From: a virus
Taxonomy: Duplodnaviria; Caudoviricetes
IMG/VR virus record: IMGVR_UViG_3300011402_000008
Coordinates: 1-34,658 of that record
Strand: one strand, 5' to 3'
Length of the DNA stretch: 34,658 nucleotides
In this document: positions 1-30,427 of the stretch, piece by piece
How the letters are laid out: each line of letters begins with the position of its first letter
Position numbering within the stretch: position 1 is the stretch's first letter
Translations under genes and position numbers: made by a program
The notes under the pieces: generated by a model
The model's input: only the letters and a program-made list of their open reading frames with translations
Database searches by the model: none
What the model was told of the DNA's origin: nothing

Positions 1-1372
1 CATCAGTAGGAGCAGCATCAGCAGAAAAGAAACCAGTATCTGGATCAGTAGGCCCAATAGCAGGAGGCATAGAAGCTACTGGGTTTCCTTGATCGTCAAT
101 TCCAATAGCAGGGGGCATCGCAGCAGGAGCAACAACATCTGCCGCAGTAATAGATTCAGTAGCAGTAGTATTTGTAGGAGAAAACAACGATTGCATAAGA
201 GCAAAAGTCGCAAAAGCAGTAAACGCACTCATTGGGTTCAATGCCATATTTGCAGCCGTAAAGGGACTCATGTTAGCAATAGCTGCAATAGTAGCTGGAT
301 TTCCGGCTACTCCTACCCCGGTACCACTAGAACCAGCAATCTCCGCGGGGTCTGCCGAGGGAATAGTGCTTCGTTTTCTACTGCTCGCTGGTTGTTGTGC
401 CACAGGTCTTGGCTGTGAAGCCAAATTTAATACTGGGGTTCTTTCTACTGCTGGGCGCGCCCCCATATTAGCTTTATTTCTAATTACCCCACCATCAGCG
501 TAGTTAGCAGGCTTTACTCTACCACCATCTTTGAAGAATGACCCGAAGAAGCTATAAATATCTTCAGCTCCTCCAGAATAATCAAGGAAATCACTTACAT
601 CGCTAACAGCTCCTAGATCTTCAACGCTATTAGCAAACAAATCTGCGGGGTCAAAAGCTTCTGCAAGAGAGCCGCCAATACTACTGGCATCAATGCCAGC
701 AGAAATCCCAGAATCAATTCCACCAATGGGGAAAGAAAGTCCGGCACCAGGAGTTCCTTCATTGAAAGCACCAAGATCACCAACAGGTGGTGATGTGGGA
801 GGAATACCCATTTGAGCAGAATTGTCTACATTGATGCTGCCTTCTAGCGGAGCCCCAGCAGCAGCTTCTTGTGCAGACTTAGCATCCATAGATTTGCCAA
901 GTTTATTAAGACCAAAGCCAGCTACTAGAGGCAACAGAGCATTTTTAGGCTTTCCTGGCTCAGTAGTTTTTTCTGTAGTAGTGCTCTTACTCGTATCTGC
1001 AATTTTACCAGCTGCTTGTACAGCTACTTGTTGTTGTTGAACTGCTGCCTGAGAAATAGATTGAGCCAGTGTCTGATTGAGTTGCGCCAGAGACTGCCCA
1101 AGCATTGAATTGTTTGTGGTTCTAGTACCAGTAGCGTTTGCATACTGTGTAGTAAGTCCTGGTACTTGTGCTGCTCCCTGCGCGAAAAGATTAGAAACTA
1201 ATGCTTGGAGAGCTTCTGGGTTTAACGTGGTAAGGAGTTGGGATAGAGCATCCGTATCCCCCGTAGTACGAGAAGTTTCAGTTGTCTTACTCCCTGCCCC
1301 ATACTTAAGAAAATCAAGCATATTAGGTAAGGGAGATTGATACTGAATGGGGGATACGGTTTCTCCGGCCAT
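1..1372 (-). CDS. Putative internal virion/DNA ejection protein (3'-truncated by the window edge; absent from the ORF track)
   Basis: Manual translation from the ATG at 1372 (RBS AGGAG upstream) reads MAGETVSPIQYQSPLPNMLDFLKYGAGSKTTET... and stays open to position 1. It is rich in A/G/S/T/Q, contains FKDGGRV and YADGGVI, and lies downstream of the tail and lysis genes. Confidence 0.7.
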   Translation of the reverse strand, partial: MAGETVSPIQYQSPLPNMLDFLKYGAGSKTTETSRTTGDTDALSQLLTTLNPEALQALVSNLFAQGAAQVPGLTTQYANATGTRTTNNSMLGQSLAQLNQTLAQSISQAAVQQQQVAVQAAGKIADTSKSTTTEKTTEPGKPKNALLPLVAGFGLNKLGKSMDAKSAQEAAAGAPLEGSINVDNSAQMGIPPTSPPVGDLGAFNEGTPGAGLSFPIGGIDSGISAGIDASSIGGSLAEAFDPADLFANSVEDLGAVSDVSDFLDYSGGAEDIYSFFGSFFKDGGRVKPANYADGGVIRNKANMGARPAVERTPVLNLASQPRPVAQQPASSRKRSTIPSADPAEIAGSSGTGVGVAGNPATIAAIANMSPFTAANMALNPMSAFTAFATFALMQSLFSPTNTTATESITAADVVAPAAMPPAIGIDDQGNPVASMPPAIGPTDPDTGFFSADAAPTD

Positions 1373-20197: not shown

Positions 20198-20908
20198 TTA
20201 GAGGTCATCGGCCTGCATGGAAACTTCCGACAGCTTGGCAAGCTTCTTAGCAATTGCCTTGCAGACCGTGGAGGACGTATCTTCCGGGCTGATGTAAGCC
20301 AACATCTTGACTGCAAGCGCGGGGGGAATGTTCGGATTGTTGCTTGCGAGAGACAGGTACTTCTCACGCAAAGCAAGTCCAAGTTTCTCCGCTGTGTCAG
20401 GCTTGGAAGCATACCGCGTTGTAGCATCCTGCTTGGTTTTGCTAGCGTCGTACCACGCGGCGATAGCATCTCCATTCAAACGCTGGCTAGTCTGCTGTGC
20501 CTGCATCTCTGTAACTACTGCGGCGAAAGTCAGCAAGGATGCATCTATCGTTGTTGCCGCTTTGTTGTCGTCACAGTAGCGGCGGAGAATGTCGCTCGCC
20601 GCAGCGTTGATGCATTCAGACAGCGCAACGCTGAAAACTTCCTCTGCATCTGTGATTTCGACTTCGTTACCTTCCACCGTCTTTTGGTACACGGCAGAGG
20701 GTGCAACGTATGCAGGCACACAAACAGCACGGTAAGAATCTGCCTCTGCTACTTTCTTGCGGCGGAAGAAAACTACTTGCTGTCCGGCCTCAAGCTTGGG
20801 TTCGCCCGCGTGGATGGTCAGGAGTACCACAGGCTTCGCAGCAGCTTGTTCTTGCGGCTCGCCTATCGTGCCTTCTGTTCCCTGCATTGCATTCATTACG
20901 GTATCCAT
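20198..20908 (-). CDS. Hypothetical protein (first leftward early gene)
   Basis: 236 aa with a strong AGGAG RBS; ends in QADDL. Confidence 0.75.
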   Translation of the reverse strand: MDTVMNAMQGTEGTIGEPQEQAAAKPVVLLTIHAGEPKLEAGQQVVFFRRKKVAEADSYRAVCVPAYVAPSAVYQKTVEGNEVEITDAEEVFSVALSECINAAASDILRRYCDDNKAATTIDASLLTFAAVVTEMQAQQTSQRLNGDAIAAWYDASKTKQDATTRYASKPDTAEKLGLALREKYLSLASNNPNIPPALAVKMLAYISPEDTSSTVCKAIAKKLAKLSEVSMQADDL

Positions 20909-21860: not shown

Positions 21861-22088
21861 ATGACAGGTATTCCGCAAGATGATTATACAGATGACGATG
21901 GAATTAATATCTGTCGCCACAACCAAATCAGCCACTTGTGCAAACAATGTGAAGCTGAATTTCAAGAGCTTGCAGACGTAAATGGTGGCATAGAAAAATG
22001 CCTCAACTGCGGCAAAATCAAATGGGGCGATCAACTTAATGAGCATCAAGTCTGCTCGAAAGGATGTGTAAACCCAAATGAATACTAA
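21861..22088 (+). CDS. Small Cys/His-rich (zinc-binding) protein; likely start MTGIPQ
   Basis: CRH..HLCKQC, CLNC and CSKGC motifs; AGGA RBS upstream. Confidence 0.55.
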   Translation: MTGIPQDDYTDDDGINICRHNQISHLCKQCEAEFQELADVNGGIEKCLNCGKIKWGDQLNEHQVCSKGCVNPNEY

Positions 22089-23142
22089 CCCATCTCAGCC
22101 TATTGGATACATTGCAGACGACACACTTGTGGCAGATAAATTTCACATGCCATTGATCTGTGCTCGTTCTGGTGTATTCATCGGTAAGTTCTATCCAAGC
22201 GTAGGACTTGCATCTACGCAAGCTTACGTTTCCGCATGGAAGGAAGCAGCATTCTTGCACCCAATCTTCAGTTGGAGTCTGGGGACGCTACTTCATCGCG
22301 CCGTGGCTTGCTGGAACTTGGAGAAAACAGGAACACGCCAGTATCCTATGCGCGAAAAACAACTCATGTTTCTCGCTATGCTCCATGCCTCTGGCTGCAT
22401 ACGTCAAGACATTGCAGCTCTCCCGTTACCAAAGGTAGTAGAGATACACTTTCCACGACTGATCGAATTGTTGAGCTGGAAAAACGACCAAGGAACTACA
22501 CGCCTTCAATTTCCTAAGCTTCACGTTTGGAAGGGCGCAGTTGGTGAAGATGAAAAGAATCCCTTTGGTAATGTCTTAGCATGGATTGCAGCTTGTGAGT
22601 CTGTGAGGGATGAATGGGAGAATCTAGTCCGGGAGGGCCAAAAGAAAGCCAAATCTCAGGCTCAGGCGCTTGCCATGCGTAACATCAAGCGCGCAATGTA
22701 TCAAGACATCTCTCTGCGGCGCCTTTGGAATTGGGTAACTACTCAGGTTCCGGGTTCCGTACTAGAGAGTAATGCTGATCTTCAGCAGCTTTTCTTCACT
22801 TCAGAAGATCAGATTCATGTTTGGACTGCTGAAGATATTGAAGCACTGGAAGATCTTGTAATCCAATACTGTGAGCTTGGTAATTCAGTATCCTTCGAAG
22901 TCATGAAGCGTACAAAAGAACTCATGACTTGGTTCCAAACATACTACGATACATTCGAAATAGTAATCAACACTGAAATGTTCTCTGCTCACAAGGGAAC
23001 TCCAGAACCAAAACAATCTGACTTTACTACCAAGGCTGAGTATCTTGTCACAATGGCAAGGTGGAAGCTTGGAAACAAACCTGCTGGTAGTGAGTCTGAA
23101 GTCAAAGAAAAGTCCCGTAAAATCACTGCGGAGGATTTGTAG
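22078..23142 (+). CDS. Hypothetical early protein
   Basis: 354-aa ORF overlapping the upstream stop; ends in ITAEDL. Confidence 0.75.
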   Translation: MNTNPSQPIGYIADDTLVADKFHMPLICARSGVFIGKFYPSVGLASTQAYVSAWKEAAFLHPIFSWSLGTLLHRAVACWNLEKTGTRQYPMREKQLMFLAMLHASGCIRQDIAALPLPKVVEIHFPRLIELLSWKNDQGTTRLQFPKLHVWKGAVGEDEKNPFGNVLAWIAACESVRDEWENLVREGQKKAKSQAQALAMRNIKRAMYQDISLRRLWNWVTTQVPGSVLESNADLQQLFFTSEDQIHVWTAEDIEALEDLVIQYCELGNSVSFEVMKRTKELMTWFQTYYDTFEIVINTEMFSAHKGTPEPKQSDFTTKAEYLVTMARWKLGNKPAGSESEVKEKSRKITAEDL

Positions 23143-23145
23143 CCC

Positions 23146-23256
23146 ATGAACGAAGATTGGATACTTTTTACAGGTGCCTTGTCAATCCTGCTCTTTATGT
23201 TGGCAGGGATGGCATGGCTTGCTGACTGGCTAGAAAGGAAATACCCTCATGGCTAA
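23146..23256 (+). CDS. Small single-TM membrane protein (36 aa, below the ORF-track cutoff)
   Basis: MNEDWILFTGALSILLFMLAGMAWLADWLERKYPHG; GGAGG RBS; overlaps the helicase start. Confidence 0.55.
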   Translation: MNEDWILFTGALSILLFMLAGMAWLADWLERKYPHG

Positions 23257-25561
23257 TGATAAACTTCTAGCTCTTATTGAGGAAGCTAGAAAGAAAGAAC
23301 GAGATAGGTTAACTGCTACTACTACTACCTCTGCTCCCATTCCAGTTCCTCACGCTTTGTCCGCAGATCAGATAGTTGAACAAGCTATTCTGGACGCTGA
23401 TCCTAACGCCTTCACATGGAATGCGGAACAGCACCGCGCCATTGAACTTGCCGTAACTGGTAAGAGTTTTAACCTTATCGGCGCGGCAGGCACCGGAAAA
23501 ACTACTACCGAACGTGAAATTGTGCGTCGCCTCATAGTAGATGAATGCGTACAACCACTCCAAAGTAGCACCAAGTACTTAGTGCAGGGTGTTCCCGGCA
23601 TCGTACTTACTTCTTTCACGCGCAGAGCAGTTCGTAACATGCGGAAAGTAGTAAGTGAAGATATGAAGAAGCACTGCATTACACTCCACAAACTCTTGGA
23701 GTATGAGCCTGTATTCTACGAGATTTGGGACAACGAAACGCAAAAGTACAAGAACACCATGCGTTTTGAGCCTATGAAGAATAAGAACAACAGATTGCCA
23801 GATGAAGTAAAGTGCATCATCATTGATGAATCGTCAATGGTAAGCACAGACCTTTTTCAGAAACTACTCGAAGCACTCCCCAACGTAAGCAAGGTGCAGT
23901 TCATTTTTGTTGGTGATCTTCATCAGCTCCCACCAGTTTACGGTCAAGCAATTCTAGGCTTTAAGCTTCTTTCCCTTCCTACTGTAGAACTTACTCATAT
24001 CTATCGTCAAGCAGCTAAATCTCCAATCATTGCACTTGCCCATAGAATGAAGAATGGTGAAGATATAGCTCTTGGCATTACCAATGAAAAAGTCTCTACA
24101 GAGCAAGGCACAGTAACACTGCGCCCGTGGAAGAAACCCCTTTCAGATTTTGACGCTGCATTTACAGCAAGTGCTTTTCTTAAGAAGTTAGTCTCAGAAG
24201 GTGACTACAATGAGGAAGAAGATATTATTCTCTGTCCGCAAGAAAAGACCAAAAATACTGCCTTTGGAACTAACGAATTTAACAGAATTATTGCTCAGGC
24301 ACTCGGGGATAAAAGAAACGCAGAAGTATTTGAAGTTATTGCTGGATACGAGAAACATTATCTCGCAGTTGGAGATAGGTTGCTCGTTGGAAGGGAAGAT
24401 GCTGTCATTAAATCTATCACTAAGAATTCCAAGTTCTGGGGAGGCAAGCATCCACTTAAAGCCTCTGTTGATCTTGATAGATGGGGACAGTACAGGAAAA
24501 AAGTAGAGCAAGAGATGGATGATACAGATGTAGATGCAATGCTTGATTCCTATACTCTCACTCCTGACGAGAAGGATGATGATAGGAAGCAAGAAGCATC
24601 ACACTGTATCCTTGTAGAACTACTTGACTCTGGAGTAGAAGAAACTATCTCAACAGCAGGAGAAATCAATGCTACACAATTTGCATACGCCCTCACTGTT
24701 CATAAAAGTCAAGGGTCAGAATGGAAGCGAGTATTCTTCCTTACTCATCAATCTCACGTTGTCATGTGGAATAGAGAACTCTTGTATACCGCGATTACTA
24801 GAGCGCGTGAAGAACTCTACATTATCTGTGAACCTGACAGAGCAGGAAAGCGCGGAACTCTCTGGAAGGCTGCAAAGTCTCCTAGAATCAAGGGGGATAC
24901 GCTTGCGGAGAAGGCCGAGTATTTCAAAGGACGACAAGAAGAATACGAAAGTAAGTACGAACCCCTAACTAATGCAGAAGCAGGACAACGAGCGTACAAG
25001 AAACCAGTGAAGGAGTCTGTACCTATTCCCAAGTTTGAGCCTGCGCCGGAACCTGTGAAACTCATAAAGCTGCATGAGTTTGTAAGTGCAGCCTTCAAAG
25101 CAGAAGCACAGGCAGCAATGGTGCAGTTTTGGAACAAAGCATTAGCAATCTGGGGCATGGATAGGATTGGCAAACTCCCCACATTGTCCTACAATCTACA
25201 ACGCAGCAAAGTTGTAGGGCTTGCTCGGATGAACTTCAACGAGATAGTACTTAACCCTCTCTGGTGCATCATGGCAGAGAGAAACGACAAGATCAAGCGT
25301 GAGATGCTAGTAGAAACAATGGGGCATGAGATTGCTCACTTGGTTGCTTGGCAGTACAGCAAAGAACGAGGGCATGAATCAGGATGGGTAATGGCAATGA
25401 AGCTTCTCGGTCTTACTCCTGATGTTACCGTAACCGACACTACTCTCCCTACTTGGGCGCAGATGTACCAAACATTTGCTACTGAGATAATGGCAGAGTT
25501 GCAAGCGAAGGGCGCAGATGTGGTAGATGATTACCAATCCAACTCTTTTGACGAGGTGTGA
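23249..25561 (+). CDS. RecD/Dda-like SF1B helicase with a C-terminal SprT-like metalloprotease domain
   Basis: GAAGTGKTT, TLHKLL, IIIDESSMV, VGDLHQLPPV, YRQ, AYALTVHKSQGSEW and LYTAITRA; C-terminal HEIAH...GHESGW. Confidence 0.9.
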   Translation: MANDKLLALIEEARKKERDRLTATTTTSAPIPVPHALSADQIVEQAILDADPNAFTWNAEQHRAIELAVTGKSFNLIGAAGTGKTTTEREIVRRLIVDECVQPLQSSTKYLVQGVPGIVLTSFTRRAVRNMRKVVSEDMKKHCITLHKLLEYEPVFYEIWDNETQKYKNTMRFEPMKNKNNRLPDEVKCIIIDESSMVSTDLFQKLLEALPNVSKVQFIFVGDLHQLPPVYGQAILGFKLLSLPTVELTHIYRQAAKSPIIALAHRMKNGEDIALGITNEKVSTEQGTVTLRPWKKPLSDFDAAFTASAFLKKLVSEGDYNEEEDIILCPQEKTKNTAFGTNEFNRIIAQALGDKRNAEVFEVIAGYEKHYLAVGDRLLVGREDAVIKSITKNSKFWGGKHPLKASVDLDRWGQYRKKVEQEMDDTDVDAMLDSYTLTPDEKDDDRKQEASHCILVELLDSGVEETISTAGEINATQFAYALTVHKSQGSEWKRVFFLTHQSHVVMWNRELLYTAITRAREELYIICEPDRAGKRGTLWKAAKSPRIKGDTLAEKAEYFKGRQEEYESKYEPLTNAEAGQRAYKKPVKESVPIPKFEPAPEPVKLIKLHEFVSAAFKAEAQAAMVQFWNKALAIWGMDRIGKLPTLSYNLQRSKVVGLARMNFNEIVLNPLWCIMAERNDKIKREMLVETMGHEIAHLVAWQYSKERGHESGWVMAMKLLGLTPDVTVTDTTLPTWAQMYQTFATEIMAELQAKGADVVDDYQSNSFDEV

Positions 25562-26190: not shown

Positions 26191-26199
26191 TGCTATAGT
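26191..26199 (+). promoter_or_regulatory. Extended -10 promoter element
   Basis: TGcTATAGT in the intergenic gap upstream of the 220-aa gene. Confidence 0.5.
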
Positions 26200-26267: not shown

Positions 26268-26930
26268 ATGCCTGAAAACGTAGTTGTTCTCCCAATTCCT
26301 ACTGAAGCAAAAGAAGTAGCTTTCCACTTCAAAAAGGAAAAGATTCGCAATCAAGCAAATGAAGTAATTGGAGAAGGTAAGAAACTTCCCTCGATCAAAG
26401 TTGCTGTTGAGCGTCCTAGCGCCGAGGGAGTTTTGGAGATCGTAAAAGCTGGTGGAAAAGAGTTGGACTTGCTGCTTGATGCTGCTGCGGATATTGTTAT
26501 TGACCGTGTTCGCGCCCTCATCAACGAAGTCCGCGCCAAGCTTCCTGATGGTCAAGAAATCAAGCCGGAAATGATTGACCTGTCGCAAGCATCTTGGTCA
26601 ATCATCGCCAATATTCCGAAAGCTGTTCGCAAGGGTCTTGGTATTTCGGATGAAGATTGGGAAGATTTTGCTGCTGACTACCGTGCTATCATGCCGGGAG
26701 TTACGCAGAAAGATGCTGACCGTATCGAGAAACATATCAAGTTGTTCAAAAGCAAGTATGCTCAGTGCCGGAATGACAAGAAAGCACTGGCTGTTCTTGC
26801 GGAGATGCTCGATGTTTGGGCTGCTAACACTGGCAGCATGGATGATAACCAAACTGTTTACGAGTATCTGAAAGGTCGTGCTGCTTCGCTGATGCAAGAA
26901 GAAGAGAAGGTGCTGGCAGAAGCACTGTAA
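26268..26930 (+). CDS. Hypothetical protein
   Basis: 220 aa with AAGGA RBS and its own promoter element; directly precedes the structured RNA region. Confidence 0.75.
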   Translation: MPENVVVLPIPTEAKEVAFHFKKEKIRNQANEVIGEGKKLPSIKVAVERPSAEGVLEIVKAGGKELDLLLDAAADIVIDRVRALINEVRAKLPDGQEIKPEMIDLSQASWSIIANIPKAVRKGLGISDEDWEDFAADYRAIMPGVTQKDADRIEKHIKLFKSKYAQCRNDKKALAVLAEMLDVWAANTGSMDDNQTVYEYLKGRAASLMQEEEKVLAEAL

Positions 26931-27688
26931 GTTTTTGAGAGGCATTTACCAGTTCACCCTCTCGCGGTCTAAAACTAAACTGGGAATGTGAGGCGGGAGT
27001 ATGGCGCCTGTATTGAGCCATAACAAAGGATAGATACTCCCAAGCTGTCTGATGAGCTGGTGAAACTCCAGCGAAACGAGGTGCGGAGTTGCCAAGCTTC
27101 TCCAATCCTCGTAACAGAGAAGCGCGGCTCTTTAACTGGTTTAGCTAATCAGTGTTTGTGGCAAATTATAAAGAGCGTCGGAACCACAGTAACCGACTGA
27201 GTAGAGGCCAAACCTTGCGGTAACGTGCTGTGAGGTTCTATTCAAGAGAACTCTGGGCGTGGCTAGAGTAAGAAGCACGCAAAAATGAAAGCAGAGTTCT
27301 CCTGAGTAGTGATGGAGGATGGATGGAAAGACAACCATCCACTGCGTTTTGGGATTAACATAGATGTATATAGTCCCTCGCAAACATTCTCGCGCTCAAT
27401 TGCTAGTCTGACGCGCGGACTCATAATGACTAGCTAAAGTTCCAGTGTAATATAAAACTTACGGTGATGAAACTGGAATAAACCGTGTTTCCCCCCGGAA
27501 AACTGCACAACTGACAAAGGCATATTACTAGTATGCTCGATTCATCAGTGGAAAATGGTTTGAACACAAGAGCTATCTCTACAGTTCAGCCAAATAGTGC
27601 GCCGGAGATTCCGAGTAACCGGCATCTTCCTCGTAAACTTTACACAGTCCTGTGTGAAGCATACATCACACCCCGCAAAGGAAAAAAG
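26931..27688 (+). ncRNA. Structured non-coding RNA region (several hairpins and pseudoknots, includes the hammerhead)
   Basis: No convincing ORF; at least 12 inverted-repeat stems and several loop-loop complementarities read by eye. Confidence 0.65.
27045..27117 (+). ncRNA. Type I hammerhead ribozyme
   Basis: Stem I CUGU/ACAG; core CUGAUGA; stem II GCUGG-UGAAACU-CCAGC; GAAA; stem III (A)CGAGG/CCUCG(U); cleavage triplet GUA, cut after 27113. Confidence 0.85.
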
Positions 27689-27955
27689 ATGGACAAACCT
27701 AAGCCATTACAAAATAAAGTTGTTCCTTCTGAAGTATCTAACCATCCTAAAGATGCCAAACAGAATGTCTTTGCTATGGCATCGCATTCTGCACAACTTC
27801 TTGCTCAACAGCGTATGAAGCAAATGACTGTCCTTGCTAACTTCGGTGTTTACATGAAGTCTCGTGAGATGCGCTGTACTGGCGTAACTTACAAGCCTAA
27901 TGGAAACAGAGAAGTAGCAAGGCGCCTGCGCCAGCAAGCCAAGAAACAAGCGTAG
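27689..27955 (+). CDS. Hypothetical basic protein (likely start MDKPKP)
   Basis: AAGGA RBS before the ATG at 27689; C-terminal YKPNGNREVARRLRQ. Confidence 0.55.
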   Translation: MDKPKPLQNKVVPSEVSNHPKDAKQNVFAMASHSAQLLAQQRMKQMTVLANFGVYMKSREMRCTGVTYKPNGNREVARRLRQQAKKQA

Positions 27956-28771: not shown

Positions 28772-28959
28772 TGTACCTCACTATTGATTGCACAACTTTT
28801 GAAGTTAGACAGCATCAAAGTCTTGAGAACGAAGAAATCTCTGGATTTGTTGCAGCTGGTTGTGTAGTTCTTGAAGTAGGCGCAAATCAAGCAAACGTAG
28901 GAATTACTTTACGCCAATTTAATGAAGATGCCACAGCTTCAGAGGTGGAAGTTGGCTAG
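28759..28959 (+). CDS. Hypothetical protein
   Basis: Short ORF coupled to its neighbours; start uncertain. Confidence 0.45.
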   Translation: MDTLMYLTIDCTTFEVRQHQSLENEEISGFVAAGCVVLEVGANQANVGITLRQFNEDATASEVEVG

Positions 28960-29194
28960 ACGTTACGCTTCCATTTGGTCAGCACTGAAGAAGCATCGCA
29001 AGATCCTAATTCGTTGTCGGCCTGAAAAGATGACTACACTCATTCAGGCTGTAAAGAAGGAGAAGGCAAGAGAAGTGGCACCGCGCCGAGCACTTGAACT
29101 TCCGGTACAGGGGAAGCTAGAGATAGTTCGTAGACGCGACAAAGGCGAAGTAGAATTCAAACTCGTAGGATTTACAAGAGCGGAGAACCTCTAA
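28922..29194 (+). CDS. Hypothetical basic protein
   Basis: R/K-rich ORF in the operon; start uncertain; ends in RAENL. Confidence 0.55.
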   Translation: MKMPQLQRWKLARRYASIWSALKKHRKILIRCRPEKMTTLIQAVKKEKAREVAPRRALELPVQGKLEIVRRRDKGEVEFKLVGFTRAENL

Positions 29195-29731: not shown

Positions 29732-30141
29732 AAATAGAAAAACATGATTGCGCTTTCTATCGTGCTGGCGTATGTAATAATTGTAAAGACCAATGTAGAT
29801 ACTCTACTCTGCCGGAAGCGCCGCAGCCTGCGACACAGCGAGGCGTGCAGGAGGTGTTCGACAACTGGAACGCCTACCTGCACCCGGTTGACCGTGAGGA
29901 CTTCAAGGCGCAGCTACTTGCATTGTCGCGGTCGGAGAAACCAGCGATACCGGAGGGGTGGAAGCTGGTGCCGCCTGAGCCTACAGAATCTATGATCGAC
30001 GAGGCAGCAGACGTATATCCGCTCTGGCCCGAGCGGCAGATCGAGAAAACGCCAATCGGAGAAATTTGCACGAAGCTGTGGAAGGCCATGCTCGCCGCCG
30101 CACCTTCGCCGGATGGCAACGAGGAGAAAACTAATGGATGA
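29728..30141 (+). CDS. Mosaic protein with an Ead/Eaa-like C-terminal module
   Basis: IPEGWKLVPPEPTESMI...WKAMLAAAP is characteristic of lambdoid Ead/Eaa-type accessory modules; likely start at 29728. Confidence 0.6.
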   Translation: MKIEKHDCAFYRAGVCNNCKDQCRYSTLPEAPQPATQRGVQEVFDNWNAYLHPVDREDFKAQLLALSRSEKPAIPEGWKLVPPEPTESMIDEAADVYPLWPERQIEKTPIGEICTKLWKAMLAAAPSPDGNEEKTNG

Positions 30142-30427
30142 AACTTCTGTACTTCCCACTCATCCAAAACTACTAGAGCTTCTTCCTAAACTAGCTGCTC
30201 TAGAAAAGTCTCTCATTACTGCTGATCCTATGATGCCTGTGCATCTAAAGGAAATTCACAAGTATCTAATCCAGTTTGAGGAACTCAGCCATTTACTTAC
30301 TGAGGATCAAATCTCTGTGATCCTCGAAGGACAGCAGAAGAAGCTTGGTGTGCTCCTTGCTGCAGAAACAACCAAGACTAAGAGCAGTACAAAGATTAAA
30401 GGCGGAGTTTCGGCGGAGGATTTATGA
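30134..30427 (+). CDS. Hypothetical protein (likely start MDETSV)
   Basis: GAGGAG RBS; helical; ends in VSAEDL. Confidence 0.65.
   Translation: MDETSVLPTHPKLLELLPKLAALEKSLITADPMMPVHLKEIHKYLIQFEELSHLLTEDQISVILEGQQKKLGVLLAAETTKTKSSTKIKGGVSAEDL

Follow-up and report, generated by a model that had tools for sequence, protein, structure and literature searches.

A modular RNA cassette behind a phage hammerhead ribozyme carries an uncatalogued double-pseudoknot RNA that also lies beside jumbo-phage tRNA genes

What is encoded by a densely structured gap between two phage genes: one large RNA, an array of small ones, or leader sequence of the gene that follows? The question is raised by positions 26931–27688 of a phage contig of 34,658 bases (the window, by which we mean the whole stretch of DNA that was analyzed), which CheckV rates as 79% complete. 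The contig belongs to a clade of 45–50-kb podophages. Capsid, portal and terminase genes occupy its minus strand; its plus strand bears a helicase gene and a Sak4-like gene. The terminase shares 35% identity with its counterparts in Pseudomonas phages 119X, PaP2 and PaMx41. One DNA sequencing run matches the gap stretch without differences, and this run may itself be the source of the window. An earlier note, made from the letters alone, had taken the gap to be wholly non-coding and to hold either one ornate RNA or a hammerhead-headed array of small RNAs. Our analysis reveals that the gap is a real modular RNA cassette that includes one well-supported uncatalogued RNA family (Table 1).

The stems on which the earlier note relied are there. 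All seven main stem pairs, from 26995/27034 through 27351/27371, were found, together with the further arms ACUGA/UCAGU (27510/27545), UGAAC/GUUCA (27561/27584), GCCGG/CCGGC (27601/27619) and CUUUACACA/UGUGUGAAG (27638/27651). On the plus strand the 758-nt gap folds with a z score of −4.42 and beats all 20 dinucleotide shuffles, while the minus strand gives −2.49. Indeed, the lowest z score of 231 segments of 150 nt taken across the contig (12 shuffles per segment) falls in the gap (27451, z −5.6), where four consecutive segments score −2 or below. As had been supposed, no tRNA or tmRNA was detected in the gap by ARAGORN, and cmscan against Rfam 15 returned no family at gathering score over it. 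At E ≤ 10 the window gave chance-level Rfam matches only, and at E ≤ 1 nothing was found over the modules in 16 motif-bearing loci.

Table 1. Features in and around the gap, with window coordinates
Feature	Position	Strand	Description	Basis or remark
Promoter-like site	26191..26199	+	Extended −10, TG-n-TATAGT	Sequence; likely transcript source
220-aa protein	26268..26930	+	Conserved phage protein, function unknown; upstream neighbor and synteny anchor	68 homologues
Module A	26995..27041	+	47-nt hairpin, possible internal pseudoknot	Fold predicted
Module A, possible pseudoknot	27000-27005/27017-27022 crossing 27007-27009/27027-27029			
Hammerhead ribozyme	27045..27117	+	Type I; predicted cut after 27113	Full core and three stems
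Hammerhead stem I	27045-48/27114-17			
Hammerhead CUGAUGA	27049-55			
Hammerhead stem II	27056-72			
Hammerhead GAAA	27073-76			
Hammerhead stem III				
Hammerhead GUA triplet	27111-13			
Module B	27127..27197	+	Closed stem with inner hairpin, then GGA..AGUAACC hairpin	
Module B, possible pseudoknot	27156-27161/27184-27189	+		
Module C	27198..27309	+	Near-invariant 10-bp hairpin and 18-bp stem with UGAAAG bulge	
Two small hairpins	27320..27377	+		None in relatives; missing from L001 and L003
Module D	27390..27486	+	Uncatalogued; two tandem pseudoknots, about 100 bases	Covariation
D5	27390-27434	+	H-type knot; half of module D	
D3	27436-27486	+	Hairpin with loop CGGU pairing with 3' ACCG; half of module D	
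Module E	27504..27555	+	Stem-loop burying AUG 27533 and a weak AAAGG site	
140-aa ORF	27533..27955	+	Arginine-rich C terminus	

The embedded ribozyme was also recovered, as a hammerhead core at 27045–27117. The core combines CUGAnGA and GAAA with an NUH triplet, three stems are present with stem I open, and covariation was observed: among the nine gaps with a hammerhead there are eight different stem I sequences, every one of them paired. In relatives the core is kept and all three stems have changed, with GUA, GUC or GUU as the triplet. This hammerhead is likely self-cutting, the predicted cut being after 27113. As in hammerhead cleavage generally, the cut would leave the core on the upstream mRNA and a 5'-hydroxyl on the downstream RNA. 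Stem I of this copy has four pairs with an ensemble probability of 0.0; a slipped register is preferred by the energy model. Residues 26948–26956 can capture stem II, the probability of which is 0.01 with that stretch and 1.0 without it. The model ignores tertiary contacts and ribosomes. The hammerhead may be slow or regulated in this copy. Type I hammerheads in phage and prophage operons are already known and, in the portion of the report consulted, are proposed to split long transcripts (Perreault et al. 2011, PMC3088659). Like the present one, they lie between genes and have three stems around a complete consensus core; however, those described there are several and flank genes, whereas this one is single, stands ahead of non-coding modules, has an enlarged stem III loop and is missed by Rfam models. 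In Pseudomonas phage phita81A, a 29-base stretch (L008, 2501–2529) in an unannotated gap upstream of tRNA-Thr matches the core and stem II of the hammerhead without a difference, and related stretches are present in several Acinetobacter phages.

Comparison with relatives shows how the gap is put together. A search with the 220-aa protein yielded about 100 syntenic loci (designated by L numbers), from which 14 distinct close gaps were scored, each behind a homologue with 50% identity or more. The window counts as one of the 14, redundant contigs having been merged, and another, L116, is covered to 422 bases only. The hammerhead is present in 9 of the 14, the GGA..AGYAACC hairpin of modules B and F in 8, module E in 5, D3 in 4, D5 in 3, module C in 3 and module A in 2. 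An extra structured module starting CUGACRA, absent from the window, occurs in four close gaps, 278, 20, 677 and 224 bases after the stop codon in L010, L111, L002 and L119, respectively. L105, the upstream protein of which is 97% identical, passes from the hammerhead directly to the module E leader without A, B, C or D, and this minimal form of hammerhead plus leader recurs in L120 and L124. L001 contains A, B, C and E and lacks D, while L111 and L116 contain D and lack the hammerhead. The same gap contains tRNA genes in 4 of 80 viral relatives and, in L122, is occupied by a 134-aa ORF behind the 220-aa homologue that resembles an HNH homing endonuclease (label read by eye).

The modules are gained and lost independently, and the gap is not one ornate RNA, because near-identical phages would not lose the middle of such a molecule. 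Thus, the idea that the whole gap forms a single large RNA of the ROOL or GOLLD type, working with the 220-aa protein, is largely refuted, although the gap is densely structured over about 600–750 nt, module B accompanies C in all three loci with C, and ROOL and GOLLD are placed near tRNAs in phages by the part of the literature consulted (PMC5737381). Beyond the loss and replacement of modules, no conserved long-range pairing was observed, gap contents vary from about 200 to 760 bases, and the protein occurs without the hammerhead in 75 of 75 distant loci. The gap is like ROOL and GOLLD in being a long structured non-coding stretch in a phage with a link to tRNA regions, but it matches neither in Rfam, is not conserved as a unit, has no conserved multistem junctions across it, and is a mosaic rather than a single 500–800-nt entity. 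Of the two possibilities in the earlier note, the array of small RNAs is the one that stands.

Among the 5' modules, A has a counterpart in L001 (92.6% identity across 54 nt), which lies at a different distance from the hammerhead. The stems of module B show compensatory changes in L001 and L003 and take looser forms in L002 and L009 (by eye). Module C (z −3.3) contains a 41-base stretch that, in the window, L001 and L003, has one change, from G-U to A-U. Residues 27238–27244 can pair with either UGAGUAG copy (27198 or 27303), and all three 7-mers change together in L003. Such heptamer pairing hints at a strand-exchange switch, the three sequences being too few for statistics. Direct repeats flank module C, and a pattern scan found it in this clade only. 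Searches of cultured phages with A, B–C and E–F gave no match or chance-level matches inside genes.

The element that the earlier note overlooked, module D, is the best conserved of the gap; its z score is −0.6, nested folding being blind to knots. Blastn of the gap retrieved one stretch common to three phages, Ralstonia phage RP13, Pseudomonas phage phiHQ and Xanthomonas phage Xoo-sp13. None of their records annotates it, and in RP13 it lies 5 bases before tRNA-Leu. Four IMG/VR pattern scans, three of which covered 2, 18 and 26 of the 64 parts, together with profile searching of 606 sequences gave 41 matches, 26 of them distinct. Merging the halves of L085 and dropping L340 (E 0.01, no paired arms) left 24 loci, of which 19 have the full module, 3 have D3 alone and 2 have D5 alone; lone halves of 45–50 nt are found in L131 and L166 and in L010, L091 and L101. 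A loose D5 pattern yielded mostly chance loci.

Covariation supports the fold. Of the 19 full forms, 13 have no long insertion in the core; in these, 96.2% of cells are paired compared with 78.5% after shuffling (0 of 500 shuffles as high), and 15 of 26 pairs are compensatory, with both sides changed. Slid controls were 26–38% paired, a comparison biased in favor of the structure, which was derived from the same sequences. D5 alone, in 12 sequences that include two stand-alone forms, is 95.5% paired with 9 of 13 pairs compensatory. For the second knot there is one covarying column, together with UGGU/ACCA forms in L111 and L277 (by eye). In addition, 31 columns are invariant in 18 sequences, partly owing to the design of the pattern, and many of these are unpaired. 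These data bear on whether the gap is simply a recombination hot spot that gathers mobile structured elements from which the phage gains little. The patchy presence of modules and the repeats around module C would fit such a hot spot, but compensatory changes are seen in D, the hammerhead, B and C, which implies that the folds are under selection, no mobility gene is nearby, and all modules lie on one strand, which makes this reading highly improbable.

How widely is D distributed? The D model finds one copy each in the cultured phages RP13, phiHQ, Xoo-sp13 and Psa21 and nothing in the T4, T5 or phiKZ records, these absences being soft, as the model misses the genome of L095, a form with insertions. 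None of 120 pattern loci from bacterial genomes (4 of 64 collection parts) contained D, and plasmids gave a single chance-level match. A scan of 14 loci found the motif covered by no Rfam family, and no description of it was found in the literature searched. Six D motif strings have no match in the tables of PMC10690425 (Fremin et al. 2023; 8,495 IMG/VR candidates); D may be among the unnamed candidates reported there or in Fremin et al. 2021.

The D loci are linked to tRNA genes. A tRNA is nearby in 11 of 24 D loci versus 1 of 350 viral loci without the motif, with flanks not exactly matched; in the other 13, the flanks taken contain no tRNA. Where a tRNA lies upstream, D starts 9–11 bases past its end, and in L099 and L103 D occupies the space between two tRNA genes. 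D often has no gene behind it to regulate. In L086, from a large phage contig, a group I intron match (151–417, minus strand, 68 bits) splits the tRNA directly behind D.

The closest kind to D is the set of stable RNAs in the tRNA regions of T4 and T5, a class that is itself already known. The T4 and T5 records list stable RNAs of 73–172 nt and unknown function in these regions (T4 rnaC and rnaD; T5 RNAI, RNAIII, RNAIV, RNA1, RNA2, RNA2H, RNA3 and RNAX), which are like D in size and tRNA setting. To our knowledge, no function has been assigned to them for decades. In the part of a recent account consulted, that of RNAC and RNAD is given as still unknown (PMC9697503). D likewise lies inside phage tRNA clusters, with a tRNA gene no more than 11 bases away at 9 of 24 loci (five of the nine near-identical, and hence one lineage), though not in this window; the present cassette, in contrast to T4 and T5, contains no tRNA and has a hammerhead at its head. 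Profiles of D, hammerhead–B–C and B did not match the ten annotated T4 and T5 RNAs.

D5 on its own forms an H-type knot. Its first loop has 6 nt and ends in UU, and its third loop ends in AAU, a layout in which it resembles H-pseudoknot aptamers of the SAM-II/SAM-V type, SAM-II in particular. Assignment of D5 to SAM-II was rejected, as RF00521 has no match in the contig at E ≤ 1 and there is neither an expression platform nor a consistent downstream gene. Readings of the modules as hairpin, twister, twister-sister, pistol, hatchet or group I RNAs were likewise set aside, with no Rfam match and the elements required by their consensus out of order.

Could D, or each of its halves, be a new self-cleaving ribozyme that splits jumbo-phage tRNA precursors and subdivides this cassette? 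Halves of 45–50 nt do stand alone, and 2 of the 4 D-bearing close gaps (L111 and L116) are without a hammerhead. The close tRNA spacing recalls theta ribozymes, which, in the sections of Kienbeck et al. 2024 consulted (PMC10879173), are likewise small double-pseudoknot RNAs beside phage tRNA genes. Self-cleaving ribozymes are also enriched near one another according to the portion of PMC10085705 consulted, and in L101 a twister-P1 match (1–55, minus strand, cut by the locus end) lies about 430 bases downstream of the D3-only motif. However, theta ribozymes have a nested HDV fold and cut at most 5 nt from the tRNA end, which defines them, whereas D consists of tandem, separable knots and begins 9–11 bases away; with halves that occur alone and no match to HDV-like families in Rfam, D was rejected as a theta or HDV-like ribozyme. 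No known catalytic core matches D, and ten similar candidates failed to cleave in the portion of PMC10085705 consulted. A ribozyme role for D is unlikely.

At the 3' end of the gap the RNA modules give way to sequence that is probably translated. The first 52 codons of the 140-aa ORF overlap the conserved hairpins F (27601–27623) and G (27638–27659), F showing a compensatory change in L124, and a second start with a strong ribosome site lies at 27689. In six of six relatives the frame stays open over the 51–92 codons that precede the second start. The distance from AUG to second start is 156, 162, 156, 171 and 168, and that from hairpin F to second start is 78, 81, 90, 90, 102 and 66, all multiples of 3, while distances measured from upstream of AUG 27533 are not. 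Seven independent length differences thus keep the frame, with a chance of about 1 in 2,000 if they are independent. These patterns suggest that the last 156 bases of the gap (27533–27688) are probably translated, so that the gap is probably not wholly non-coding. Because relatives keep the frame from AUG 27533, E–G are best explained as a leader that belongs to the next gene, is folded and translated, and lies outside the RNA cargo, which is best taken to span about 26995–27490. Module E is likely a translational control element, a role suggested by the sequence that it buries; its pattern scan found the partner arm in 1 of 76 loci, that one being the contig of L001. The 140-aa ORF has no PHROG family below E 0.03.

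This overlap of E–G with the next ORF is one of the observations behind a purely cis-acting explanation, according to which the modules are folded blocks and knots that, once the hammerhead has cut, would protect the 5' end of the early mRNA that follows and adjust how it is translated, with no free RNA made. All modules do lie on the coding strand between two genes, and in L105, L120 and L124 the cassette is reduced to the hammerhead and the leader. In L099 and L103, however, D between two tRNA genes has no mRNA to protect, and invariant unpaired bases across distant phages appear to surpass the needs of a roadblock. We consider the cis-only explanation quite unlikely.

The upstream neighbor had been put forward as the protein partner of the RNA. 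Its predicted structure has a pLDDT of 88.5, but no PHROG or Pfam family and no PDB fold was matched, Atlas structure matches were all below 0.9, and the single match to a viral structure is to one without a name. Its possible paralogy with the 236-aa protein (20198–20908) was dropped, as comparison gave no support. The pattern finder located the hammerhead behind 0 of 75 homologues of less than 50% identity, a count that may miss some because the finder is blank at the phita81A locus with its 29-nt core stretch. Because of this absence, the 220-aa protein is unlikely to be a dedicated RNA partner, and tblastn finds no homologue in the unrelated jumbo phages with module D. The product of ORF 27689–27955 appears to be the better candidate RNA-binding partner. 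This ORF encodes an arginine-rich C-terminal helix that is kept in relatives.

The proposed promoter at 26191 appears to be correct. The site reads TG-n-TATAGT, and like extended −10 boxes precede the same gene in L001, L105 and L111, but a consensus −35/−10 scan does not list it; it is a putative promoter. A terminator-like hairpin at the end of the 220-aa gene is absent in L001, and a scan of the contig found 6 such hairpins versus 2.9 expected.

The observations comprise the modular make-up, the anatomy of the hammerhead, the fold and distribution of D, the association of D with tRNA clusters and the kept 3' frame. From these we favor, with a probability of about 0.55, a swappable small-RNA cassette that stands in for a phage tRNA cluster and in which the hammerhead frees stable trans-acting RNA. 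A transcript would start at the extended −10 site and read through into the gap; the hammerhead would cut it and free the 5'-hydroxyl RNA; and host nucleases would trim this RNA, releasing single modules that, D above all, would persist as stable RNAs. With its invariant unpaired bases, D would then work in trans, probably as a binder of some small molecule or protein of the host cell or its surroundings. Where D lies among tRNA genes, as in jumbo phages, maturation of the tRNAs would excise it, and in this gap the hammerhead would replace that first cut. We infer the binding role because so many invariant columns of D are unpaired and there is often no gene behind it, while the steps of transcription, cleavage and release remain conditional. 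The cassette reading is favored by the independent gain and loss of modules and by a hammerhead near the gap head in 9 of 14 close gaps, and the cleavage step by the demonstration, in the portion of PMC3088659 consulted, that phage transcript-splitting hammerheads cleave. That the cassette stands in for a tRNA cluster is favored since D adjoins tRNAs, the same gap can hold tRNA genes, and T4 and T5 tRNA regions carry stable RNAs. The cassette reading is weakened by the stem I probability of 0.0, the capturable stem II and the terminator-like hairpin upstream, as well as by the 13 D loci without a tRNA and by the gap itself, in which no signal was seen for releasing D alone, without tRNAs or a second ribozyme.

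More tentatively, D could be a new functional RNA class, with two ribozyme or two aptamer domains, that is traded between this podophage clade and unrelated jumbo phages. The locus would then be a tRNA-free cargo bay from which the hammerhead releases interchangeable RNA tools, possibly anti-defense sponges. For the class of T4 and T5 stable RNAs, D provides a covariation-backed fold, invariant unpaired bases and separable halves, and its copy in the cultured Pseudomonas aeruginosa jumbo phage phiHQ makes cleavage, ligand binding and fitness directly testable. Judging by this locus, small phages that lack tRNA genes may carry such RNAs as swappable cargo behind a hammerhead.

Two further observations concern the proteins of the contig. 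Five proteins of the early/replication arm (20198–20908, 22078–23142, 26268–26930, 28922–29194 and 30113–30427) end in a similar acidic C-terminal tail, ADDL, AEDL, AEAL, AENL and AEDL, respectively, which may be a shared docking motif. The 770-aa helicase (23249–25561) contains a C-terminal SprT-like domain (Pfam PF10263, above cut-off), an unusual fusion.
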